Under the pieces are notes generated by a model. It was given only the letters and a program-made list of their open reading frames with translations, did not search any database and was not told where the DNA came from. DNA of 64,000 nt from an uncultured Fibrobacterota bacterium (GTDB lineage Bacteria; Fibrobacterota; Chitinivibrionia; Chitinivibrionales; WJKA01): NCBI GenBank assembly GCA_964589825.1, contig CAZPUS010000003.1, positions 64,275-128,274 of the forward strand, written 5' to 3'. Positions 231 through 56,394 of the stretch are shown piece after piece; positions within the stretch are counted from its first letter, which is position 1, and each line of letters begins with the position of its first letter. The translations under genes were made by a program, and so were the position numbers.

Positions 231-390
231 TCTGAATTGTACGGTAGTATTAATAAACGCTGCGGTGTACCGTGCTGCGCTTGTATGTACAAAATGTATC
301 GCACAGCCTTGGTGGTTGTCTCATTGCTTCGGAGAATATACACACAGTACGGATGTCAGCAGAATACGCCGGCAAATTAATTCAGTTAGG
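231..390 (+). repeat. Imperfect-palindrome intergenic element (~160 nt, MITE-like), copy 1
   Basis: The termini tctgaattg... and ...aattcagttagg are inverted. Internal blocks aaacgctgcggtgtaccgtgctgc, tggttgtctcat and cagcagaatacgcc align in order with the copies at 9819, 36672, 41045 and 56130. The left half approximates the reverse complement of the right half. Confidence 0.75.
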
Positions 391-1801: not shown

Positions 1802-2230
1802 TTACGCATTGATGGCGATTTTTTTGGGTTTTGCTTCCTCCCGTTTTGGAATATGAATCTTCAGTACCCCGTTATCGAGCGATGCATTGACCTTCTCTTT
1901 ATCGTATTCATCCGCAAGCTGAAATGAACGATAATAATCACCAACATTGAACTGGCGTACCGACGCTTCTTCTCTGGCTTCCTGGCTGCTCTTTCCGCTG
2001 ATCACCAGGGTATCGTTTTCGTTTACCTCGATACTTACGTCACCTTTTTTTACCCCCGGCATATCAGCGATAAGCAACAACTCGTCATCACTCGTATAGA
2101 TATCCACATCCGGAATATAGGCATTCTCTGTGTTTATCAGACTCTCGGCTCCCGAATGTTTCACTTCCCGTTTATCCTGCTTTTCGATATCTCTGGCCAT
2201 AATAACACCTCCTTTTTGTATTTCGCTCAT
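1802..2230 (-). CDS. Small heat-shock protein, Hsp20/alpha-crystallin family (paralogue 3 of 3)
   Basis: 142 aa. Alpha-crystallin domain motifs ADMPGVKKGDVSIEV and NGVLKIHIPKREE. Confidence 0.9.
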   Translation of the reverse strand: MSEIQKGGVIMARDIEKQDKREVKHSGAESLINTENAYIPDVDIYTSDDELLLIADMPGVKKGDVSIEVNENDTLVISGKSSQEAREEASVRQFNVGDYYRSFQLADEYDKEKVNASLDNGVLKIHIPKREEAKPKKIAINA

Positions 2231-2237
2231 CTATTCT

Positions 2238-2654
2238 TTATTCGACATCAACCTTTATCTGTTTGGGTTTGGCTTCCTCCGCTTTGGGCAGCGTGACGAT
2301 CAGCACACCGTTGCTGAATGATGCCTTTAGCGCATCCTGATTGACCCGATACGGAATCCGAAAACTCTTTTCGAAATCCCCTTCCGGTCTCTCTTCACGA
2401 ACCGCAGTATATTTGCTGCGATCCACGGCGCTTTTCCTCGTTCCCGAAAGGGTCAGCACCCCGTCACTGAAGGTAATATCAACCGCATCTTTCTCAACAC
2501 CCGGAAGTTCGGCATGCACCACAACATCGTCTTCTTCATCGTAGATGTTTACCAGTGGAAATGCGCGCCGTCCTCCTCCATACGTGGAAAAAAGTCTGTC
2601 GAGATCCTGCTGCATACGCTCCAGTCTCGCGAACGGATCCTGATACCATAACAT
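2238..2654 (-). CDS. Small heat-shock protein, Hsp20/alpha-crystallin family (paralogue 2 of 3)
   Basis: 138 aa. Motifs AELPGVEKDAVDITF and NGVLIVTLPKAEE. The gap to the next hsp20 is 7 nt. Confidence 0.9.
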   Translation of the reverse strand: MLWYQDPFARLERMQQDLDRLFSTYGGGRRAFPLVNIYDEEDDVVVHAELPGVEKDAVDITFSDGVLTLSGTRKSAVDRSKYTAVREERPEGDFEKSFRIPYRVNQDALKASFSNGVLIVTLPKAEEAKPKQIKVDVE

Positions 2655-2684
2655 AATTACCTCCTTTTTTAATGTACTTTTTTG

Positions 2685-3182
2685 TTATTCAACAGCTACA
2701 TCTATTTTTTTCTGTTTTTTCTCTTCTTCTGTTTTGGGCAGTGTTACAGAAAGTACGCCGTTTCTGTAATGTGCTTTCGCAGCATCCCATTTGACGTTTT
2801 CACCCACCGGGATGGTTCTGCAAAAACTGCCGTAACGACACTCTCGTCTGCGCCATCCTTTTTTCTCCTCTTTCTGTTCGTCGCGTTTTTCACCGCGTAT
2901 GGTCAGAAAGCCGTTCTGATACGTGATATCCAGATCGTCTTTTTTCAGCCCCGGTATTTCGGAACGAACATATACATTTTTCTTGTCTTCATTCACATCG
3001 ACCGTAGGCTGCAGCATTACCTCTTCTTCATCTCCCCACGGCTCACTCAATGCGGTAAACGGATTCTCGAAAAAACGATCGAACCACTCATCCGCACCAC
3101 GACGCTGCACTCCCCGTTCTCCTTTTTTCCATGGTATTATACCTCGCATACTTACCTCCTGGTTAAGGTTTATAAGGTTCAT
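2685..3182 (-). CDS. Small heat-shock protein, Hsp20/alpha-crystallin family (paralogue 1 of 3)
   Basis: 165 aa. Motifs SEIPGLKKDDLDITY and NGVLSVTLPKTEE. Confidence 0.9.
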   Translation of the reverse strand: MNLINLNQEVSMRGIIPWKKGERGVQRRGADEWFDRFFENPFTALSEPWGDEEEVMLQPTVDVNEDKKNVYVRSEIPGLKKDDLDITYQNGFLTIRGEKRDEQKEEKKGWRRRECRYGSFCRTIPVGENVKWDAAKAHYRNGVLSVTLPKTEEEKKQKKIDVAVE

Positions 3183-31763: not shown

Positions 31764-31815
31764 CCTGAACTGAGCAATTGTGTTGATGCAAGATCACGAT
31801 ACAGTAAATTCCCTG
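31764..31815 (+). repeat. Imperfect-palindrome element, left-arm fragment only
   Basis: cctgaactgagcaattgtgttgatgcaag...cagtaaattccct matches the left terminus and first blocks of the 56130 copy (ccctaactgagcaactgctttgatgaaag...cagtgcatccct). The right arm is absent, and the cysC terminator follows. Confidence 0.35.
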
Positions 31816-31819
31816 CCAC

Positions 31820-31849
31820 AAAAAAAAGCCGGCGCAATAATGCGCCGGC
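31820..31849 (-). terminator. Rho-independent terminator of sat-cysC
   Basis: Perfect 9-bp stem gccggcgca / tgcgccggc with loop ataa. The A8 run on + gives U8 after the hairpin on the minus strand. Confidence 0.8.
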
Positions 31850-31905
31850 CGCATACTCATCATTTACACCTCTACACCCGGAATTACGTATTAAAGATTT
31901 GCCTT

Positions 31906-32517
31906 TTACTTTTTCGCAATCACGCCCTTCTCCTCCAGGTGATGCAGTACCTGCTGCGCGCATTCCTGCACAGGTGCGGCAGCGGTATCGATCACCAGCT
32001 CGGGCGAATTCGGCTCTTCGTAGGGGGCGGAAACACCGGTAAACTCCTTGATTTCTCCTGCAAGCGCTTTTTTGTAAAGCCCTTTGGGGTCGCGCTCCTT
32101 GCAGGTCTCGACATCCGCTTTTACATAAATTTCCATGAAGTCACCCGGATCGAGCAACGCACGTGCGGCATCACGATCTTTACGATACGGCGAAATAAAG
32201 GAGGTGAGTACCACCATGCCGGCATCGGCGAAAAGCCCGGCCACTTCACCGATACGCCGTATATTTTCGGTGCGGTCTTCGGGGGAGAAGCCAAGATTTT
32301 TGTTCAGCCCGTGTCTGATATTATCTCCATCAAGACTGTAGACTTTAACCCCTCTGTCAAACAGCAGATGTTCGACTTCTACGGCTATTGTCGATTTACC
32401 GCTGCCCGAAAGGCCGGTAAACCACAGCACCACACCCTTATGATTGTTTTGTTTTTCCCGTTCCTGCTTGCTTACCCGACTCTGATGCCACGTAATATTG
32501 GTCGCTTTCTGCTCCAT
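31906..32517 (-). CDS. cysC: Adenylylsulfate (APS) kinase
   Basis: 203 aa. FTGLSGSGKSTIA and LDGDNIRHGLN. Confidence 0.92.
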   Translation of the reverse strand: MEQKATNITWHQSRVSKQEREKQNNHKGVVLWFTGLSGSGKSTIAVEVEHLLFDRGVKVYSLDGDNIRHGLNKNLGFSPEDRTENIRRIGEVAGLFADAGMVVLTSFISPYRKDRDAARALLDPGDFMEIYVKADVETCKERDPKGLYKKALAGEIKEFTGVSAPYEEPNSPELVIDTAAAPVQECAQQVLHHLEEKGVIAKK

Positions 32518-33663
32518 TTACTTCTCCTCGTTTTGAATCCAGGTTTTAAGTACGTCGGATACTTCCTTACGTGTAAACTCGTCCGGCAGATCTTCATTGT
32601 TACGCAGTTTTTCACGAACCTTTGTACCACTGAGAAACACATGGCAGCTTTTGTCGTGGGGACACGTCTTTGCAGTAACCATCTGTTCACATCTGGTACA
32701 GAAGAATGCATGTTCGAACTTGAGCGGGGTAATCTCGAGCGCACCGTCTTCGAGCTCGTTGAAAATCAGCTGGGCATCGTAGGTACCGTAGTAATTGCCC
32801 ACACCTGCATGGTCACGTCCGATAATCAAATGCGAAATCCCGTAATTCTGACGAATGATGGCATGATGTATCGCTTCACGGGGACCGGCATAGCGCATTG
32901 CCATAGGAAGGATGTTCAGCAATACCCGTTCGGCATTGTAGTAATGCTCGATGATGGTTTTATAACAATCCATACGGGTCTTTGCCGGTATATCACCCGG
33001 TTTGATCTCCCCTACGATGGGATGAATCATAAGCCCGTCAACCATCTCGAGTGCGACCTTTGTCAGGTATTCGTGCGCACGATGGATCGGATTACGCGTC
33101 TGAAACGCGGCAATGGTATCCCAGCCTTTTTCGTTAAAATAGTCGCGTGTCTGCTTTGGGGTCAGAAAATTCTCGGGGAAGCCGGTATCTATATTTTCCA
33201 GTACGATCGATACATCACCGGCTACCGCGTATTTACCCTCTTCGAAAATCTTTTTCACACCGGCGTGTTCCTGGTCCGAGGTGCGATACACATGCATGGC
33301 TTCTTTTTCCAGATCGCGCTGGAAATGCTCCGTTACGGTGCAGATGCCAACCGTGGTGCCGTCACGTCCGGTAAGACGGATTGTATGTCCCGACTCGATC
33401 TCCTCATACTGCTGCGGGGTCACCGAAAGCACGATCGGTACGGCAAAAAGCGTCCCGTTGTCGAGTTTCATCTCGTTTACCACGCGTTCATAATCGGCCT
33501 GTCCCATAAACCCTTTCAGGGGTGAAAACCCGCCGATACCGATCATGAGTGCATCGAACAACTGACGATCCGAAAGCATCAGGGTATGCTGTACCTGCTG
33601 CGCTTCCGCCTCCGGCGCCTTTATCAGACGCTCCACTACGGTGCCGCCATGGGGTTTGACCAT
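32518..33663 (-). CDS. sat: Sulfate adenylyltransferase (homo-oligomeric ATP sulfurylase)
   Basis: 381 aa. FQTRNPIHRAHEYL and IGRDHAGVGNYYG. Abuts cysC with no gap. Confidence 0.92.
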   Translation of the reverse strand: MVKPHGGTVVERLIKAPEAEAQQVQHTLMLSDRQLFDALMIGIGGFSPLKGFMGQADYERVVNEMKLDNGTLFAVPIVLSVTPQQYEEIESGHTIRLTGRDGTTVGICTVTEHFQRDLEKEAMHVYRTSDQEHAGVKKIFEEGKYAVAGDVSIVLENIDTGFPENFLTPKQTRDYFNEKGWDTIAAFQTRNPIHRAHEYLTKVALEMVDGLMIHPIVGEIKPGDIPAKTRMDCYKTIIEHYYNAERVLLNILPMAMRYAGPREAIHHAIIRQNYGISHLIIGRDHAGVGNYYGTYDAQLIFNELEDGALEITPLKFEHAFFCTRCEQMVTAKTCPHDKSCHVFLSGTKVREKLRNNEDLPDEFTRKEVSDVLKTWIQNEEK

Positions 33664-35664: not shown

Positions 35665-36563
35665 TATCGTATCCTCGATGCTATTGCCTGATCAACAGGC
35701 TTGACCTGTGTGATTCCGATGCCGTGCTCCACAAGCACCTTTACGCCATGGGGAATTTGCTGCGCGGGATTGTGTACACGAATACGCCATTCATTATTCG
35801 GATGCCGCACCGGGACATCCTCGCTTATCTGCTGCAGAAACCCGGAAATGTCCGTGTCTGTGGATACACGTATCATCCACTGTTGAGTCTTGTCGGGAAA
35901 AAAAACACGCTCTTCGGCATTGTGCAACAGACCGTTTTCAAGTACCACGATACGATCGCATACTTTTTCAATCACCTCGCTTCGATGAGAACTTATCACT
36001 ATTGTTTTTCCCTGCGTGCGTTTGGTAAGAATCAACTCACGTATCCGTTCGTATTCATTTACATCGAGCGATCGAAACGGTTCGTCGAGTATGCACACCT
36101 GCGGATCGCTCACGAATGCCCTGCACAAACTGCATAGTGTCTTCTGGCCGGCCGAAAGATACTGCGCCTTTTTCTCCATTACCCGGGAAGAAACTCCTTT
36201 CCAGAAGCGGGAAAAATATGCCGCATACGCGTCGTCGGATACCGACTTTGCCTGCGCCCAGAATTCGACATTTTCCCTGAACGTCAAATTACGAATAAGC
36301 CCCGGCTCTTCGAGTACCGCACCGACTTGTTCGTATAAATGCGCACGGTGCTGCCAGGGATTTTCTCCGAAGAGCGATACAGTCCCGTCGTCTGCACGCA
36401 ACAGCCCCAGCATAATACGTATCAGTGTCGACTTGCCTGCGCCATTGAGTCCTGACAACCCGGTGACTTCACCCGGGTGAAGCTGAAGAGAAAGCCCCGC
36501 AAGTACCCGGTGGGATCCAAACGACTTTTGTATGTGTTCCATTGTCACAGGAATCGTACTCAT
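35664..36563 (-). CDS. ABC transporter ATP-binding protein
   Basis: 299 aa. Walker A GLNGAGKST, signature LSAGQK and Walker B ILDEPF. Confidence 0.9.
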   Translation of the reverse strand: MSTIPVTMEHIQKSFGSHRVLAGLSLQLHPGEVTGLSGLNGAGKSTLIRIMLGLLRADDGTVSLFGENPWQHRAHLYEQVGAVLEEPGLIRNLTFRENVEFWAQAKSVSDDAYAAYFSRFWKGVSSRVMEKKAQYLSAGQKTLCSLCRAFVSDPQVCILDEPFRSLDVNEYERIRELILTKRTQGKTIVISSHRSEVIEKVCDRIVVLENGLLHNAEERVFFPDKTQQWMIRVSTDTDISGFLQQISEDVPVRHPNNEWRIRVHNPAQQIPHGVKVLVEHGIGITQVKPVDQAIASRIR

Positions 36564-36671
36564 TACTTCCCTTTTTCAGTTTTTTTTCATTTTCCAAAGG
36601 TGAACAATACCATCGGGACTTGCTGCATCCACTCTCCTATGTCGCATATGCACAGAAAATATACTATTCTC

Positions 36672-36832
36672 TCCTGAACTAAACGATCACTTTGATGAAC
36701 GCCGAAGCAAGCCGTGCTTTTTCGAGTTCCTGATCATGATTAATCGACCTCACATATTGGCATATCATTTCCGGGAATACAAACGCAGTAATAATGGCAG
36801 CGCATTTCGCGAATACGTCATTCAGTACAGGA
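36672..36832 (+). repeat. Imperfect-palindrome intergenic element (161 nt) flanked by a 5-bp direct repeat TTCTC
   Basis: Termini tcctgaact... and ...cagtacagga. Blocks ctttgatgaacgcc, gccgtgc and gcagcgcatttcgcgaat. TTCTC at 36667-36671 and at 36833-36837 abuts both ends. Confidence 0.75.
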
Positions 36833-37069
36833 TTCTCCGTATGCGCAAAAAAATCTTATTTTTATACGTGTCAATGTCCTATTTGCTTTGCTCCATCTTT
36901 ATTCAGTGACACAACGTATTTTTTGACATTCAGCAGTTAAACTGCAAACAGTGCCTGATGCTGTTTCCCCTGACCGGATGGACATGTTGTCAACCCTCTG
37001 CTGCGAGAGAGCAGCAATTGCATACCCCGTCACCCGCTTTTTACATCGAATCGCCACACAAGCACACCC

Positions 37070-38866
37070 ATGAAAGTAATAATCGCACAACATGCAGGGT
37101 TTTGTATGGGGGTAAAGCGTGCAGTCGATCTTGCGATCGATGAATCACGCAAAGCCCGGCGTCCCATCTATACGCTCGGGCCGCTCATCCACAATATACA
37201 GACGCTGGAGCTTTTAACATCAAAAGGTGTATATGATATAAAAGATTGTGATCCTCCGCCTGAACACGCACACATCCTCGTACGCGCACATGGCGTCACC
37301 CCGGAAACGGAAGAGAATTATCGGGAACAGGGCTATACACTTATCGACGGGACATGCCCGAAAGTCAAGACCGTTCACAGGGTGATCGAAAAATACCGGG
37401 AAAAAGGGTATTATATTGTCATTATCGGAGATCGCGGACACGCCGAAGTTGAAGGGCTTCTCGGTTATGCCGGAGGAGAAGGCACGGTTATTTCTCAAGA
37501 AAGCGATATCGAATCGTTACCCGAAAAAGATAAAATATGCGTTGTTTCCCAAACTACCTTCAACAGCTCGGAATTCGATTCGTTAACCGATACACTGCGG
37601 CAACGTCTTCCTGCGGCCGAATTTGTAATAAAAAAAACAATATGTGCCGCTACCAATAAACGACAGGCGGAAATCCGGAACCTCGCCACGCAGGTGGATG
37701 CGCTCGTGGTAGTGGGTGGAAAACACAGTGCGAACACGACGCGTCTGGCCCATATCGGCTGCAAAGCCGGACTGCCGACACAGCACGTAGAGACAGAAAA
37801 AGAACTCGATACAGAAGCCCTCTCTCGCTATTCCACGGTAGGCGTCACGGCCGGTGCCTCGACCCCAAACTGGATGATAAAGCGTGTCGCCGCCACGATC
37901 GGTGCACTCGATACACAATCGCGAAACTACATAAACCGCTTCACACTAAAAGCACTCCATCTGCTTGGCTACTGTAATATATTTATGGCCTTTAGTGCGG
38001 TATGCGCTTCGTTTTTTTCCTGTGTGGTCCAGGACATATTCTTTTTCCAACCCCGCATACTACTAAGTACCGCGGCCATATTCCTCTACTTCTTCTCAAT
38101 GCATTTGTGGAACAGTGTAGCCAATAGTGAAATCACTCAGCATCTTGGTGTCGCGAGATATACTTTTTACAGCAGACATAAACGGCTGCTTCTTTCTTGT
38201 GCAGGCCTAGGTATGGGTCTTTTGCTCCTTCTGAGCAGCATACCGAATCGCGCGGTGTTTTTTCTCATGCTTTTTTCGACAGTAATCGGACTCGCCTATC
38301 ACCTCCCCGTGGTCCCGGCCTTTTTGCGACGAATCATTCCCTATCGCAGCATCAAAGATGTACCTACATCAAAGGATCTTTTTGTGGCACTGGCCTGGGG
38401 TGCAATCATTACATTTATTTTCCAGGCCGGTGCAGATTTTTTCTTCCGTTTCGATATTTACGCAGCATCCGTATTTTTGATCCTGTTTTTCTATTCATAC
38501 ATCCGTTCTTTGCTTATGGACCTGCGGGATATAGAAGGAGACCGGATTATGGGACGTGAAACACTCATTACCCTTATAGGAGAAAAAAGGGCGCTCAGCG
38601 TCATCTATGTAATGCTGTTTTTCATAATTCTCGTATGCTGTCTCCCCGGTCTTTTTTCACTCTTGCACCACGGCAACCTTCGTTCGACCGACTACATATT
38701 GCTTCTGCAACTGCCGGGAGTCGCCTTCATAAAATTGATTATCGATCGAAAGGCCTATCGAACCATCGATGATCCTTCGATATTCAATTTGCTATGCAAT
38801 GCTCAGTTTTTTATTGTCGGTATACTTGCTCTTACAGGGTACATGGTACTACAAAGTATAGCCTGA
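37070..38866 (+). CDS. ispH: Fusion: 4-hydroxy-3-methylbut-2-enyl diphosphate reductase (IspH) + C-terminal 9-TM UbiA-like prenyltransferase domain
   Basis: 598 aa. Residues 1-~285 are IspH (GFCMGVKRA, DGTCPKV, ICAATNKRQ, GGKHSANT). The remainder has ~9 TM helices with a UbiA-type second Asp-rich motif LMDLRDIEGDRIMGRETL. The first NDxxDxxxD motif is not recognisable (WNSVANSEITQH). Confidence 0.85.
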   Translation: MKVIIAQHAGFCMGVKRAVDLAIDESRKARRPIYTLGPLIHNIQTLELLTSKGVYDIKDCDPPPEHAHILVRAHGVTPETEENYREQGYTLIDGTCPKVKTVHRVIEKYREKGYYIVIIGDRGHAEVEGLLGYAGGEGTVISQESDIESLPEKDKICVVSQTTFNSSEFDSLTDTLRQRLPAAEFVIKKTICAATNKRQAEIRNLATQVDALVVVGGKHSANTTRLAHIGCKAGLPTQHVETEKELDTEALSRYSTVGVTAGASTPNWMIKRVAATIGALDTQSRNYINRFTLKALHLLGYCNIFMAFSAVCASFFSCVVQDIFFFQPRILLSTAAIFLYFFSMHLWNSVANSEITQHLGVARYTFYSRHKRLLLSCAGLGMGLLLLLSSIPNRAVFFLMLFSTVIGLAYHLPVVPAFLRRIIPYRSIKDVPTSKDLFVALAWGAIITFIFQAGADFFFRFDIYAASVFLILFFYSYIRSLLMDLRDIEGDRIMGRETLITLIGEKRALSVIYVMLFFIILVCCLPGLFSLLHHGNLRSTDYILLLQLPGVAFIKLIIDRKAYRTIDDPSIFNLLCNAQFFIVGILALTGYMVLQSIA

Positions 38867-39003
38867 TTGACGTATGTTGCGAATATGCAACTCATCATGT
38901 CGCTTTTTGGAAAAACTCTGCCAGAACAGTATATTTTTTCATGATGACATACCGGGCCAAAGTGCGGCCTAAACTGAACGAGCGCCTGGATGTAAACCGG
39001 TGT

Positions 39004-39789
39004 TTACAGCACCACACTCACCACAATAAAGTTTGAGACCAGAATAAGAACCGAAGCCCCGACAACCGCACGGTTGGTCGCTTTTCCCACGCCCGTGGCG
39101 CCACCGGTGGTAATATAGCCGAAATAACATCCGGTAAGAGTAATAATCCCGCCGAATACAAACGCCTTAATCATACACACAATTACATCGTTGATACTGA
39201 ACAGCATCTTTATGCCGTTGTAAAAAGTCGCGTTGCTCACCCCGAGTCCCACATTCGCGATAAGTTGTGATGTTACGATCGCGAGAAACGATGAGTAAAT
39301 AACCAGTACCGGCATCATGATAAATCCGGCAAGTACCCGGGGGGCGAGAAGGTAGAGAAACGGATCCAGATACAGTACCTCCATGGCATCTATCTGATCG
39401 GTTACCCGCATCGATCCAAGCTCGGAGGCGAGCATGGCGCTTACACGACCGGTGATTACCAGACCGGTAAGCACGGGTCCCAGATCGACGAGTATCGCCT
39501 TGCCTACAGCTGCGCCGAGATAGGTGTAGGGTATGATAAAGGAAAAAAAGTACTGCGCCTGCCAGACGGTAATAATGCCGATAAAGACCGAAATGAGGGA
39601 TATAAGCGGCAGGGATCGTACACCGATACGCATGGATTGTTCAAAAAGCAGATAGTACCTCGTTCCATACGAAGGAAGTACTCGCATTACACGAAGGAAG
39701 AAAAGCATGAGACTTCCCACACGTTCCACCGCCTCCCGTATTGTTCGCCCCGTGGATTCCGCGGTCTCATCGATCAGGCGTGCAATCAT
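39004..39789 (-). CDS. mlaE: MlaE-family ABC transporter permease
   Basis: 261 aa. YLGAAVGKAILVDLGPVLTGLVITGRVSAMLASELGSMRVTDQIDAMEV is the MlaE/Ttg2B signature. Confidence 0.88.
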   Translation of the reverse strand: MIARLIDETAESTGRTIREAVERVGSLMLFFLRVMRVLPSYGTRYYLLFEQSMRIGVRSLPLISLISVFIGIITVWQAQYFFSFIIPYTYLGAAVGKAILVDLGPVLTGLVITGRVSAMLASELGSMRVTDQIDAMEVLYLDPFLYLLAPRVLAGFIMMPVLVIYSSFLAIVTSQLIANVGLGVSNATFYNGIKMLFSINDVIVCMIKAFVFGGIITLTGCYFGYITTGGATGVGKATNRAVVGASVLILVSNFIVVSVVL

Positions 39790-41003
39790 TATGTATCGCT
39801 CTCTTCTTCCATACAGGCCTCACGTTTCTCTTCAATAAACTGCAAAATAGTAAAAAACACCAGCCGATACGGAAACTTCCATACCATTACCAGTACGGGT
39901 CGGGTCATTTGAAACAACGATGTAGACAGACTCATGGATGCAGATATCGATATATCCGTTGTTTCGAAATCGGGGATATATTCGATATTGAATCTCCGCA
40001 GGTGATACATCCCGCAGGCATGTTGTAAAGCCCCCATTGCCCCTGCCATCATTCCGGTGGTGTCCGGCCCCCCGCACCGACCACACACCCGCAGATAAAA
40101 ATGACCGAATCCTAAAATACCTATCCCCGAGGCCACCGATGCAATGATCCACCTAAGAAGCTGCGCTCTCGTATCCGGCTGCTGCGCAATAGCCAACAGA
40201 TACTCCCCTGCCGAGCTGTGACGCACTATATACCAGCGTCCGCATTTACTCTTCTTTTTATTGTTACCTTCCCTTTCTTTGTCGTGTAAATGCTCCTGGT
40301 CGGTTTCAACTCCGTGTGCGGCCTCCTCCTGCTGTTGTGCGGTTTCCGCAGAGCCTTCTACGTCATCCGCATCTTTGGAGCCCGAATCCTCCAATGCCGA
40401 CGCATGCTCATGTGGCGGCCGATCAATTCGTTCATCTTCGTTGCTCCCGGAATTGAGAAGGGAATCGTCGCTTTGCTCCCTATCCGGTCCCTGCGGCGGT
40501 CGATGAGCAGAAACTTCATCCTGATTCCTCTCTTCCGGCTCTTCTGCCATATGAGAGGCTTCTTCGCGACCAACGACGCTACCCCTGTTCTCATCCCTGT
40601 TTGTTTTTTCTCCTTCTCCATTGCGCTGCGCTGAAAAATGGGTCGGTATCTTTTGTTCTGTATGCGGGGGCTGCTCTGCGTGGCTTTCGACGTTATGCAT
40701 TGACGGCGAATCCATATGAGCTTCGGTTGTTCTCCGCTCTTGCTTATTTCCCTCTCCATCATCTTCAGCTGTACGGGGGATTGTAAACCGTGACAGAATG
40801 ACGAAACGAAAACCATCACCGCCGGGTGCATATGACCATGACAAGACGACCGGGTGTATCCAGAAACCCTGCAGCGTGTTCCACCGTCCATGCGAATATT
40901 CGACGCATGCCTTAAACGGAGAAAAATAAAGAAGCAGCAGGAACCCGCACACAAGCATTGCCACCACCCCGATAATAAATAGTATCCACATGATAAATGA
41001 CAT
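39789..41003 (-). CDS. Hypothetical membrane protein with a long acidic disordered linker
   Basis: 404 aa. N-terminal TM (WILFIIGVVAMLVCGFLLLLYF), a ~180-aa E/D/Q-rich low-complexity region and a C-terminal globular part (GGPDTTGMMAGAMGAL). Overlaps the mlaE start by 1 nt. Confidence 0.55.
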   Translation of the reverse strand: MSFIMWILFIIGVVAMLVCGFLLLLYFSPFKACVEYSHGRWNTLQGFWIHPVVLSWSYAPGGDGFRFVILSRFTIPRTAEDDGEGNKQERRTTEAHMDSPSMHNVESHAEQPPHTEQKIPTHFSAQRNGEGEKTNRDENRGSVVGREEASHMAEEPEERNQDEVSAHRPPQGPDREQSDDSLLNSGSNEDERIDRPPHEHASALEDSGSKDADDVEGSAETAQQQEEAAHGVETDQEHLHDKEREGNNKKKSKCGRWYIVRHSSAGEYLLAIAQQPDTRAQLLRWIIASVASGIGILGFGHFYLRVCGRCGGPDTTGMMAGAMGALQHACGMYHLRRFNIEYIPDFETTDISISASMSLSTSLFQMTRPVLVMVWKFPYRLVFFTILQFIEEKREACMEEESDT

Positions 41004-41044
41004 GCTACTGACTCCGTTTGGGCAAACGCAGGAAACTCTTTTTA

Positions 41045-41205
41045 CCTAAATTGAACGGTTGTTTTGATGAATGCTGGGGTGAACCGTGCTGCTATCGTGT
41101 TCTCGCACATTATGGAGCACCCTTTTTGGTTGTCTCATGATTTGCGAGAGTACTAGAGTAGCGCGGATTGCAGCAGCTTTCGCGAACAAAACCGCTCAAT
41201 TCAGG
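41045..41205 (+). repeat. Imperfect-palindrome intergenic element (161 nt) flanked by a 5-bp direct repeat TTTTA
   Basis: Termini cctaaattgaacgg... and ...ccgctcaattcagg. The left half matches the reverse complement of the right half across ~75 nt. TTTTA at 41040-41044 and at 41206-41210. Confidence 0.8.
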
Positions 41206-41256
41206 TTTTATTTGAACCTGAATTATTCAATCAGGTAAACGGGCGTTATGATACCG

Positions 41257-42108
41257 CTATCCGGCCGGTAAAGACGCCCGGCTGTCGGCACCCATAATCT
41301 TCCCGTCTTCAGTGATCACCTCATCCATCGTGATATCGGTATAAGGGTCACGGGGCAGCGGTGACCGGGAAATCTGACACCCGAAGGCAACCCCCAGCAG
41401 TGGTATTCTTCCCTTGAGCTCCTCCAGAAAACTGTCATAATAATGTTTGCCCCGTCCAAGACGTCCTCCTTGTGCGTCAAACGCAACACCCGGACACAGC
41501 ACCAGGTCAAGATCGCTCTTGAGAAAATTGCCTTGTAAATGATCGAGCGGCTCCTGTATACCATACGTACATGTATGACAGTCACAGGTGATATCCGCGA
41601 CCTCCGCTATAACCAGCTCACAGCGATCTTCTTTACAGCACGGCAAAATTGTTCGCTTCCCGTCTGCCTTCATCTGTACGATCAACGCAGCGAGATCCAC
41701 CTCGTCCGCAAGCGCCATATAGACCATTATTGCCCGCGCATCACGGTAAAATGAGGTGTGCGCCACATGCCGACATATGGATGCCGACTTTGCCTGACGC
41801 TGGTCGTGAGACAATTCGGCGCGACGTCTGGAATAATACGCCCTCGATGTTTTTTTGCGTGCGGCCAGATCGTTATGGCTGGTGTCACGGACAACGTCAC
41901 GGGTGCTTTCTTTTACGCTGTGTATCGATTCATTTACCGGTTCAGTGATGTTCGACAGCTCCTCCCGCATCTGATCGCTGTAATACCGCGCTTTGGCGAA
42001 AAGCCTTCCGGCGGTTCGGATAAAGCGAGGCAGTTCTTTTGAACCGAAAAACAGAAGAAGAAGAATAAAAACAACGAGAAGTTCCGGAAAACCTACGCCG
42101 GTAATCAT
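41257..42108 (-). CDS. Fusion: TatA/TatB-family N-terminal module + 5-formyltetrahydrofolate cyclo-ligase
   Basis: 283 aa. The N-terminus MITGVGFPELLVVFILLLLFFGSKELPRFIRTAGRLFAKAR is a TatB-like TM plus amphipathic helix. The C-terminal ~190 aa is 5-FCL (VYMALADEVDL, GVAFDAQGGRLGRGKHYYDSFL). There is no internal Met before the 5-FCL part. 4-nt overlap with tatC. Confidence 0.8.
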   Translation of the reverse strand: MITGVGFPELLVVFILLLLFFGSKELPRFIRTAGRLFAKARYYSDQMREELSNITEPVNESIHSVKESTRDVVRDTSHNDLAARKKTSRAYYSRRRAELSHDQRQAKSASICRHVAHTSFYRDARAIMVYMALADEVDLAALIVQMKADGKRTILPCCKEDRCELVIAEVADITCDCHTCTYGIQEPLDHLQGNFLKSDLDLVLCPGVAFDAQGGRLGRGKHYYDSFLEELKGRIPLLGVAFGCQISRSPLPRDPYTDITMDEVITEDGKIMGADSRASLPAG

Positions 42109-42884
42109 TTATGGCCTCCCCCCTCTGTTTCCCGTTCTGGTCTCTTGTCTGATTTTTGGCCTGAGTTTTGCGCCGCAGCCATCGATATGAGAATACTTAC
42201 CCCATACAAGACAAGAAGGGGCGCGGCAAGAAACAGCTGAGATATGACATCGGGCGGCGTAATGAATGCAGCAAGTATAAAGAATATAACAAATGCATAT
42301 TTAAATTTTTTTACCAGAAAACGAGTGGAAATCACTCCCATTCTGGTAAGTACGAACGATATAACCGGCAGCTCGAATACGAGGCCGAACGCGAGTACGA
42401 TCTTGAGTAAAAAACCGATATACTCATTTGCACGAAAATAGGGCTCAAGGGATCCTGACGCATATCCCGCAAGAAATTTCATTACGTATGGCAGCATCAG
42501 ATAGCTGAATGCGGCACCCAGAAGAAAGCACATGGTCGATGCAATCGCAACCGGGGCAACGATTACTTTTTCACGCTTGTACAATCCAGGCCCGATAAAT
42601 TTCCACACCTGCCAGGATATCATCGGTACCGCAATGATGATACCTCCCGCAACCGCGATTTTAATACTGAGAAGCACCCCTTCTGCCGGTGCGGTAAAAA
42701 TGATCCTGGGTCTGGGTTCCGATATCCTGAGGGGATAGATCATCAGCAGATCGAAGATTTTTCGCCACCATATCCCGCATGGAATCGCACCAGCGATTAC
42801 CGCGGCTATCGACGCGATCATGCGCCACCGTAATTCTTCCAGATGCTGTAAAAACGGCATTTCCCTGTCGGCGTCTTCTGCCAT
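42105..42884 (-). CDS. tatC: Twin-arginine translocase subunit TatC
   Basis: 259 aa. MPFLQHLEELRWRMI with a 6-TM pattern. Confidence 0.92.
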   Translation of the reverse strand: MAEDADREMPFLQHLEELRWRMIASIAAVIAGAIPCGIWWRKIFDLLMIYPLRISEPRPRIIFTAPAEGVLLSIKIAVAGGIIIAVPMISWQVWKFIGPGLYKREKVIVAPVAIASTMCFLLGAAFSYLMLPYVMKFLAGYASGSLEPYFRANEYIGFLLKIVLAFGLVFELPVISFVLTRMGVISTRFLVKKFKYAFVIFFILAAFITPPDVISQLFLAAPLLVLYGVSILISMAAAQNSGQKSDKRPERETEGGGHK

Positions 42885-56062: not shown

Positions 56063-56129
56063 ATCCGATTCGTCATCCGTGCGTTTTTTCATGCGAAAAC
56101 GTGTTACAAATGATATATTTACAGTACAA

Positions 56130-56287
56130 CCCTAACTGAGCAACTGCTTTGATGAAAGCTGCCATGAACCGTGCTGTCAGTGCATCCCTAATGATGGATC
56201 ACGCGTGATGGTTGGCTCACCGTTTCGGGGGGCGCACCGTCAGTGTACATGACATAAAACTTTGCGTACAGAAGCGCTCAGTTGGGG
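56130..56287 (+). repeat. Imperfect-palindrome intergenic element (158 nt) inside the envelope locus
   Basis: Termini ccctaactgagc... and ...gctcagttgggg pair over 12 positions (one G-T). Blocks ctttgatgaaagctgcc, atgaaccgtgctgtcagtgc and tggttggctca. Left arm ctgtcagtgcatccc faces right-arm ggggggcgcaccgtcag. Confidence 0.8.
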
Positions 56288-56394
56288 TACCGTTTACTCG
56301 ATATACACACGGCTATACCTGAGCAGGTTCTGCTGTCCTGCACCCGGCCCGTTTTTCGTACAACGTTTGCTGTGTACTATTCCGCAACCTTTTT

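Follow-up and report, generated by a model that had tools for sequence, protein, structure and literature searches.

A probable old MITE family with IS1380-like ends, located between housekeeping genes in DNA from an uncultured Fibrobacterota-like bacterium

In an uncultured Fibrobacterota-like bacterium, a non-coding palindromic repeat of 160 bases is present as four diverged copies between housekeeping genes of the window, i.e. the whole 64-kb stretch of DNA that was analysed. The four copies are likely to be members of an old family of miniature transposons (MITEs), probably mobilised in trans by a transposase of the IS1380 type. This reading is supported, though not proven, as the best explanation of everything that could be tested. 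The data show the repeats with their inverted termini, the duplications and how far they exceed chance, the likeness of the ends to ISEcp1-type repeats and the lack of a transposase gene in the window; that the copies were moved in trans, which transposase did so and how old they are is what we infer. The traits of a MITE found here are a short non-coding body (158-161 nt), terminal inverted repeats, flanking duplications that differ from locus to locus (with a shift of 1 nt in register) and dispersal as four copies within 56 kb. Miniature transposons of this kind are ordinary bacterial junk DNA.

A covariance model was constructed from these copies; in the 64-kb window it gave exactly four matches, all on the + strand, at 229-394 (150 bits), 36671-36834 (149 bits), 41043-41208 (170 bits) and 56128-56290 (152 bits). 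Measured between homologous CC...GG ends, copies 1 to 4 are 160, 159, 161 and 158 nt long, and the identical length of 161 nt reported in the initial annotation was an artefact of non-homologous boundaries. Pairwise identity among the four copies is 51-63%. Copy 1 (231..390, + strand, 160 nt) has a divergent gene start on one side, at about 207, and argJ on the other, at 472. Copy 2 (36673..36831, + strand, 159 nt between its CC...GG termini) is flanked by an ABC ATPase gene that starts at 36563 on the - strand and by lytB-ubiA, at 37070 on the + strand. Copy 3 (41045..41205, + strand, 161 nt), in which the palindrome is the best preserved of the four, has a - strand gene on either side: it is 41 nt upstream of the point (41003) at which a 404-aa gene starts, and its distance from the end of a 5-FTHF cyclo-ligase ORF (41257) is 51 nt. 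Copy 4 (56130..56287, + strand, 158 nt) separates a Wzz/tyrosine-kinase gene (end 56062) from a LytR/SLBB gene (56395). All four copies are intergenic, and none is part of the long ORFs taken as genes. The orientation shared by all four would arise by chance in one case out of eight.

The copies are imperfect palindromes with terminal inverted repeats of 14-17 bp, for which the consensus is 5'-CCTGAATTGAACGG. In helix 1 of the consensus structure, columns 3-14 pair with columns 154-165 at 91%. Seven of the eight copy ends start with CC, the exception being the left end of copy 1, which starts with TC. Copy 1 has the left end TCTGAATTGTACGG and the right end ...AATTCAGTTAGG. The inverted repeats of copy 2 are CCTGAACTAAACGA on the left and, reverse-complemented, CCTGTACTGAATGA on the right; in the same notation, the two ends of copy 3 are CCTAAATTGAACGG and CCTGAATTGAGCGG, and those of copy 4 are CCCTAACTGAGC and CCCCAACTGAGC. 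At 41217..41235, 11 nt beyond the right end of copy 3, a 19-nt mini-palindrome, CCTGAATTATTCAATCAGG, was noticed by eye. It is composed of the terminal repeat's first 8 nt and last 8 nt, and may be a copy with its interior deleted. A loose scan for further collapsed copies performed no better than a Markov null. A lone 14-mer at 38968 resembling the terminal repeat was rejected, as a 14-mer with three mismatches can be expected by chance and this one stands without a partner.

Perfect direct repeats flank copies 2 and 3, at the positions given for them in the initial annotation. At copy 2, TTCTC occupies 36667..36671 and 36833..36837. The left repeat stands one T (36672) before the CC terminus and reads ATTCTC together with A36666; the right repeat is preceded by A36832, such that ATTCTC directly abuts the GG terminus. 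If copy 2 is taken with its extra left T, the repeat is one of 6 bp, ATTCTC. At copy 3, TTTTA abuts exactly on both the CC terminus (41040..41044) and the GG terminus (41206..41210). The flanks of copy 4, TACAA and TACCG, match at three of five positions, as had been claimed, and read as a decayed duplication. Those of copy 1, TGTTA and ATAGT, show no duplication (0 of 5), also in agreement with the earlier description. The two perfect duplications abut their termini 1 nt out of register, and either single register gives five of five in one copy only, with three or four of five in the other. In the initial annotation, copy 2 had been begun one base outside its CC terminus (CCTG...CAGG, with T before it and A after it), and copy 3 at CC.

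A perfect abutting 5-mer repeat at random window positions 158-161 nt apart has a probability of 0.0014, which rises to 0.012 with a slack of +/-1 nt per boundary, and to 0.018 in AT-rich flanks. Perfect repeats at two or more of four copies, with flexible boundaries, have P = 8e-4 to 1.8e-3. When one fixed register is imposed on every copy, the flanks agree at 11 of 20 positions (P = 0.0066). Tabulated over the four window copies (a small sample, n = 4), the flanking 5-mers match in excess of chance, with P = 8e-4 to 6.6e-3, or about 0.001-0.007 depending on boundary freedom. The transposed MITE put forward in the initial annotation is upheld as regards a short, non-coding element with terminal inverted repeats and differing, above-chance flanking repeats, but the argument from an identical length fails.

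The palindrome bears on an alternative that we consider unlikely, i.e. that the copies are a structured RNA family (sRNAs, or hairpins of 5' UTRs or intergenic regions) under selection for structure, with the 5-mers being a coincidence or a leftover of mobile origin. The consensus is a rod-like hairpin with 89% of cells paired, and compensatory double changes are found in 12 of its 41 stem pairs, where shuffles give 5.9 and slid controls 2-4; a count of 12 was reached in none of 500 shuffles and is above all slid controls. Some structural constraint exists, because neutral decay after insertion would not yield 12 compensatory pairs out of 41. Selection on an RNA would also agree with the fold of copy 3 (z -8, with -75 kcal/mol for the + strand and -58 kcal/mol for the - strand) and with the + orientation of all four copies, three of which are in sense, upstream of or between + strand genes. 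The consensus folds of the two strands are similar, that of the + strand being slightly better (-20.9 vs -18.4 kcal/mol on the - strand, with 29 vs 15 G-U cells), and the unpaired motifs TTTGATGAA, CCGTGCT and GGTTGTCTCA are conserved. However, the fold of copy 2 does not stand out from those of shuffled sequence (z -0.55), and the arms lack strand asymmetry: their mismatches to each other (29 G.T vs 24 A.C) show no strand bias, which points to a DNA palindrome and not to one transcribed strand under selection. The genes downstream are unrelated (argJ, lytB-ubiA, a capsule-type gene, an antisense position), and the element is missing upstream of lytB in the closest relative found. At the gathering score, Rfam 15 returned tRNA alone for the whole window, and even at E <= 10 the only family returned for copy 3 was mir-318, a chance match. 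A structured RNA would, moreover, leave the flanking repeats (P about 0.001 to 0.007) unexplained.

For the MITE family preferred here, the termini suggest a link to the IS1380 family, in which termini are 5'-CC and target duplications measure 4-5 bp. The ends were compared with those of two IS1380-family elements, namely ISEcp1, whose inverted repeats in plasmid pC15-1a are CCTAGATTCTACGT and CCTAAATTCCACGT, and a complete ISEcp1-like element of 1,699 bp on a metagenome contig (L064), with ends CCCGCATTCTACGT / CCGGAATTCCACGT and the duplication TATCA/TATCA. The 5'-CC rule holds in both elements as read, and the core CCnnAATTnnACG is common to the copy termini and the inverted repeats of both. 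The left end of copy 3 matches the right repeat of ISEcp1 at 11 of 14 positions, a score that a random 14-mer starting with CC equals at P about 0.003 per comparison, with four repeats compared. Across all ends, the matches to ISEcp1-type repeats, which represent one IS1380 clade, range from 3 to 11 of 14, and most type-A ends have 7-11. IS1380-family members sampled from plasmids were for the most part ISEcp1 itself.

The window copies resemble ISEcp1-type IS1380 elements (DDE transposase, Pfam DDE_Tnp_1_4 and DDE_Tnp_1) in their 5'-CC termini, their 14-17-bp repeats with the shared core and their T/A-rich 5-bp duplications (TTTTA and TTCTC here, TATCA in the L064 element). A 5-bp direct repeat is also tabulated for IS1247, which belongs to the IS1380 family as well (PMC3281130). 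The copies differ in being about 160 bp long without a transposase gene, whereas ISEcp1, the L064 element and IS1247 are about 1.66-1.70 kb, and in their host, which is a Fibrobacterota-like lineage. Their palindromic interior also has no detectable similarity to ISEcp1 subterminal regions: in a comparison with 120 nt of subterminal sequence from ISEcp1 and from the L064 element, no significant local similarity was found beyond the terminal 14 nt, and the interior thus gives no sign of an origin by internal deletion from an ISEcp1-type parent IS. Within the repeats, positions 9-10 and 14 consistently differ from the ISEcp1 type (GA..G vs CY..T), which would make the parent another member of the family.

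Mobilisation of the MITE by a family other than IS1380, e.g. as a Tn3-derived TIME or by an IS1634- or IS3-type element, seems quite unlikely. IS1634- and IS3-type elements make duplications of about 5 bp, and the similarity to ISEcp1 extends over just 14 nt (P about 0.003-0.01, two IS1380-family elements tested). On the other hand, the core CCnnAATTnnACG is shared with both ISEcp1-type elements read, and the CC...GG termini are unlike Tn3-family ends, which begin GGGG, and IS3 ends, which are TG...CA. Like the window copies, Tn3-derived TIMEs are non-autonomous and give 5- or 6-bp duplications on insertion into AT-rich DNA (PMC4133298). They are, however, at least 262 bp long with the 38-bp repeats of Tn3-family ends (PMC4133298), compared with repeats of about 14-17 bp here, and the identity of a Tn3-derived TIME was rejected on the termini CCTGAA... 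/ ...TTCAGG. Integron attC sites, REP/RAYT elements and IS630-type elements (TA duplication) were likewise rejected on termini.

That the copies are a non-mobile palindromic repeat (of the REP/BIME type, or a site of recombination or protein binding) with a chance match of 5-mers is very improbable. In its favour, they are intergenic, palindromic and in a single orientation, and the statistics come from four copies only; against it, REPs are 20-40 nt long without an architecture of terminal inverted repeats plus duplication, P for the matching flanks is at most 0.0066 and the ends resemble transposon inverted repeats. REP/BIME sequences, which are also intergenic palindromic repeats, are mobilised by RAYT (IS200/IS605-like) transposases without target duplication, whereas the window copies are four to eight times the length of a REP and have flanking direct repeats. 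ERIC, Correia/NEMIS and RUP, the classical bacterial MITEs with a hairpin fold, are imperfect palindromes of 100-160 bp, non-coding and intergenic, whose ends are inverted repeats; they occur in many copies and form hairpins when co-transcribed. The window copies share this non-coding, intergenic and palindromic build, inverted ends included. These three families duplicate TA (IS630/Tc1-like logic), in contrast to the 5-bp duplication here; the window copies have no sequence similarity to them and are much more diverged.

As the initial annotation had stated, the window contains no transposase: a Pfam scan of about 48 ORFs detected none, and two IS1380 transposases used as tblastn queries had no match. 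An autonomous element with the same ends was also not found in the 64-kb window. In the closest relative found, the syntenic gap between the ABC-ATPase gene and lytB-ubiA is 144 bp, compared with 506 bp here, and the element is absent from it (50% amino-acid identity, with flanks too distant to align). The best homologues of lytB-ubiA are only about 50% identical, and two of their loci are without a copy. Exact-protein look-ups yielded identical proteins in one sample only, SRR13334649, in short Logan contigs that are the same as the window, and no strain variants or empty sites. Metagenomes and viruses were scanned with the conserved-motif pattern TTRATRAANGCYGNNNNNNNCCGTGCT. The JGI metagenomes gave 21 chance loci, of which a single one scored, and that weakly (21 bits, pattern-driven), and IMG/VR gave one chance locus by the pattern; neither held further copies. 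A blastn search of copy 3 against plasmids gave no match.

For an old MITE family, we propose that the terminal inverted repeats of 14-17 bp (5'-CCTGAAYTGARCGG) would be bound by a DDE transposase whose gene is elsewhere in the genome, most likely one of the IS1380 family and ISEcp1 type. The enzyme would then excise or copy the 160-bp element and insert it at T/A-rich sites with 5-bp staggered cuts, and gap repair would leave a 5-bp direct repeat, different at each locus. Diverged sublineages of copies would account for identities of 51-63% beside two intact duplications. The arms would co-vary since the two ends of a palindromic element must stay alike, and only those copies that landed between genes would have survived. 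Once co-transcribed with a gene, a copy is predicted to form a long hairpin, by which termination or mRNA stability could be affected.

Several observations run against a MITE family. A perfect duplication is present in only two of the four copies, with boundaries 1 nt out of register, and the copies, at 51-63% identity, are far more diverged than typical MITE families. All four also share one orientation, and 12 of 41 pairs carry compensatory changes. To these are added the lack of a transposase, an autonomous element or an empty site among what was searched, the lack of more copies in the JGI metagenomes and IMG/VR, and a likeness to ISEcp1 that ends with the terminal 14 nt. A selected hairpin function would explain both the compensatory changes at such identity and the single orientation. 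A further version, which we regard as speculative and unlikely, is a MITE family of the IS1380/piggyBac type in deep-branching Fibrobacterota whose palindromes are selected as RNA or DNA hairpins (terminators, or sites of mRNA stability or processing). A limited literature search did not turn up an IS1380/piggyBac-type MITE link.

The significance is mostly one for annotation: the copies constitute a repeat family, specific to the lineage, at which assemblies will fragment. The family inflates several intergenic regions of a poorly sampled Fibrobacterota-like genome, where a small RNA or a riboswitch could be annotated in its place by mistake. The compensatory changes in the arms offer a small, testable case of how symmetry is kept up in palindromic mobile elements. 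If the IS1380 link is true, the copies would represent a miniature derivative for a family of transposons whose best-known role is the spread of CTX-M beta-lactamase genes, and would provide a handle on how that family recognizes its ends.

A repeat search combined with a covariance model derived from these repeats identified exactly four members of this palindromic repeat family in the window, all on the plus strand. The model matched copy 1 at 229-394, copy 2 at 36671-36834, copy 3 at 41043-41208 and copy 4 at 56128-56290 with scores of 149-170 bits, and everything else in the window scored 12.5 bits or less. Pairwise identity among the copies is only 51-63%. Measured between homologous CC...GG ends, copies 1-4 are 160, 159, 161 and 158 nt long; the identical length of 161 nt reported in the initial annotation was thus an artefact. 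All four are intergenic: copy 1 separates a divergent gene start from argJ, copy 2 separates an ABC ATPase gene from lytB-ubiA, copy 3 lies between two minus-strand genes, and copy 4 has a Wzz/tyrosine-kinase gene on one side and a LytR/SLBB gene on the other. The single orientation has a 1 in 8 probability by chance; three copies are sense to adjoining plus-strand genes and copy 3 is antisense to its minus-strand gene pair.

The window is ordinary chromosome, encoding argJ, three HSP20 (small heat-shock protein) genes in tandem directly downstream of argJ (1802-3182, minus strand), two-component kinases, lepA, trpA/B, tyrA, aroA, pfk, flagellin, ATP sulfurylase, MoxR, an IspH-UbiA fusion, mlaE, tatC, capsule export genes, rmlD and one tRNA-Leu. 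As first noted, it carries no transposase: none of approximately 48 ORFs scanned against Pfam has a transposase domain, and tblastn of the window with two IS1380 transposases gave no match. A 5-formyltetrahydrofolate cyclo-ligase ORF (41257-42108, minus strand), which adjoins tatC (42105-42884), shows a weak resemblance to TatA/B/E at its N-terminus (E = 5.6e-4), which reflects either a tatA fusion or a wrongly called start that joins two genes. A 581-aa plus-strand ORF (31780-33525) that matches no Pfam family overlaps the gene for ATP sulfurylase (32518-33663, minus strand), which is well supported; the longer ORF is probably spurious, at least in the overlap.

All four copies are imperfect palindromes. 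The fold of copy 3 is an almost unbroken hairpin of 160 nt, with an energy of -75 kcal/mol (z -8) for the plus strand and -58 kcal/mol for the minus strand; that of copy 2 is no more stable than the fold of shuffled sequence. Of the 41 pairs in the consensus structure, in which 89% of cells are paired, 12 carry compensatory double changes, compared with 5.9 +/- 1.6 in shuffles (0 of 500 reached 12) and 2-4 in a slid-partner control. This covariation, together with the common orientation, is what favours the main rival explanation, a structured-RNA family, which we nevertheless regard as improbable. When the left arm is compared with the reverse complement of the right arm on the plus strand, the oppositions comprise 29 G.T and 24 A.C, and the consensus folds of the two strands are similar (-20.9 and -18.4 kcal/mol). 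Therefore, the symmetry belongs to the duplex and is not clearly that of one transcript. Besides this missing strand bias, other points count against an RNA family: copy 2 folds poorly, the neighbouring genes are unrelated to one another, no Rfam family matches, and flanking repeats are present. Conserved arm-specific motifs also occur, the left arm carrying TTTGATGAA and CCGTGCT and the right arm TTTCGCGAA; thus, the family has defined left and right ends.

The flanking strings were found exactly as first described: TTCTC on both sides of copy 2 (36667-36671 and 36833-36837), TTTTA on both sides of copy 3 (41040-41044 and 41206-41210), TACAA/TACCG at copy 4 and no repeat at copy 1. For pairs of positions drawn at random from the window at a spacing of 158-161 nt, the probability of a perfect abutting 5-mer repeat is 0.0014, rising to 0.012 with +/-1 nt freedom per boundary and to 0.018 where both flanks are AT-rich. 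This freedom matters because the boundaries originally drawn for copies 2 and 3 are not homologous in the alignment, that of copy 2 having been set one base outside the conserved CC terminus (T/CCTG...CAGG/A) and that of copy 3 at the CC. With per-copy chances of 0.012-0.018, at least two perfect duplications among four copies have P = 8e-4 to 1.8e-3. The two perfect duplications are real strings above chance, but one base out of register with each other, and in any single register only one of them is 5/5: the CC...GG register gives 5/5 for copy 3 and 3/5 for copy 2, and the register one base wider per side gives 4/5 and 5/5, respectively. Over all four copies, 11 of 20 flank positions match in both registers (P = 0.0066). 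Copy 2 has a 6-bp repeat, ATTCTC, when one additional T is tolerated on its left side. The duplications give a real signal, though a modest one, and it rests on four copies.

Excision of copy 2 with one TTCTC would join CGCATA to TATGCG (36640-36860), so that an inverted repeat of 6 bp would surround the insertion site; this is probably due to chance. Further, a mini-palindrome of 19 nt, CCTGAATTATTCAATCAGG, is found 11 nt beyond the right end of copy 3 (41217-41235). In it, the first 8 nt of the family's terminal repeat are joined to the last 8 nt; it has no flanking duplication (TTGAA/TAAAC) and looks like a second copy with its interior deleted across the hairpin.

We take CC termini with a 5-bp duplication to be the combination that points to IS1380 in the ISfinder family table. 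The ends of copy 3 (left, CCTAAATTGAACGG; right, reverse-complemented, CCTGAATTGAGCGG) share a core, CCnnAATTnnACG, with those of ISEcp1 in plasmid pC15-1a (CCTAGATTCTACGT and CCTAAATTCCACGT) and of a complete 1,699-bp element in metagenome contig L064 (448-2146; CCCGCATTCTACGT and CCGGAATTCCACGT), whose transposase is 84% identical to that of ISEcp1 and which is flanked by a perfect TATCA/TATCA duplication. The best terminal match to ISEcp1-type ends is 11/14, which a random window 14-mer starting with CC equals with P ~0.003 (~0.01 after four comparisons). For IS1247, another IS1380-family element, a 5-bp direct repeat is tabulated (PMC3281130). Assignment to IS1380 is a supported lead, short of demonstration. 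The copies show no similarity to ISEcp1-type elements beyond the terminal repeat and are therefore not simply an ISEcp1-like IS with its interior deleted. Environmental metagenomes commonly encode transposases with 83-93% identity to the clinical ISEcp1 enzyme (proteins P0121-P0240), and examples come from MAGs of Labilibaculum and of an ANME-2 archaeon.

The gene beside copy 2 (37070-38866, plus strand) is one ORF fusing IspH/LytB, of isoprenoid synthesis, to a UbiA-type prenyltransferase, a fusion shared by hundreds of proteins from Chitinispirillaceae, Chitinivibrionales and Fibrobacter. Its best homologues, in MAGs of these groups, are 44-51% identical, and an identical copy occurs only on one Logan contig of 2.4 kb, from SRR13334649; the host lineage is therefore Fibrobacterota-like and poorly sampled. 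In GCA_964571815.1, the nearest relative in which the ABC-ATPase and lytB-ubiA genes are likewise arranged divergently, the gap is 144 bp, compared with 506 bp here, and contains no copy of the repeat; a second relative likewise has none. Such an element-free gap is what insertion predicts, although at 50% protein identity it is not a true empty site, and it speaks against a conserved lytB leader RNA. A motif matching all four copies did not find the family in JGI metagenomes or IMG/VR.

The transposition of a miniature element proposed in the initial annotation is thus supported by duplications above chance and ISEcp1-like ends, short of proof. We consider it likely that the four copies are an old MITE family, mobilised in trans by a DDE transposase from outside the window. 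This enzyme would most likely be of the IS1380 family, and insertion would be at T/A-rich 5-bp targets. Most of the divergence may predate the present insertions and stem from active, symmetric master lineages, and not from neutral decay in place; this is the easiest explanation because strong divergence coexists with intact duplications and compensatory arm changes. By a rough estimate, not a tool result, wholly post-insertional divergence would leave only ~19% of duplications perfect, and two of four is compatible even with this. The MITE and structured-RNA readings are not exclusive and can both hold; ERIC- and Correia-type MITEs act as RNA hairpins once inserted.
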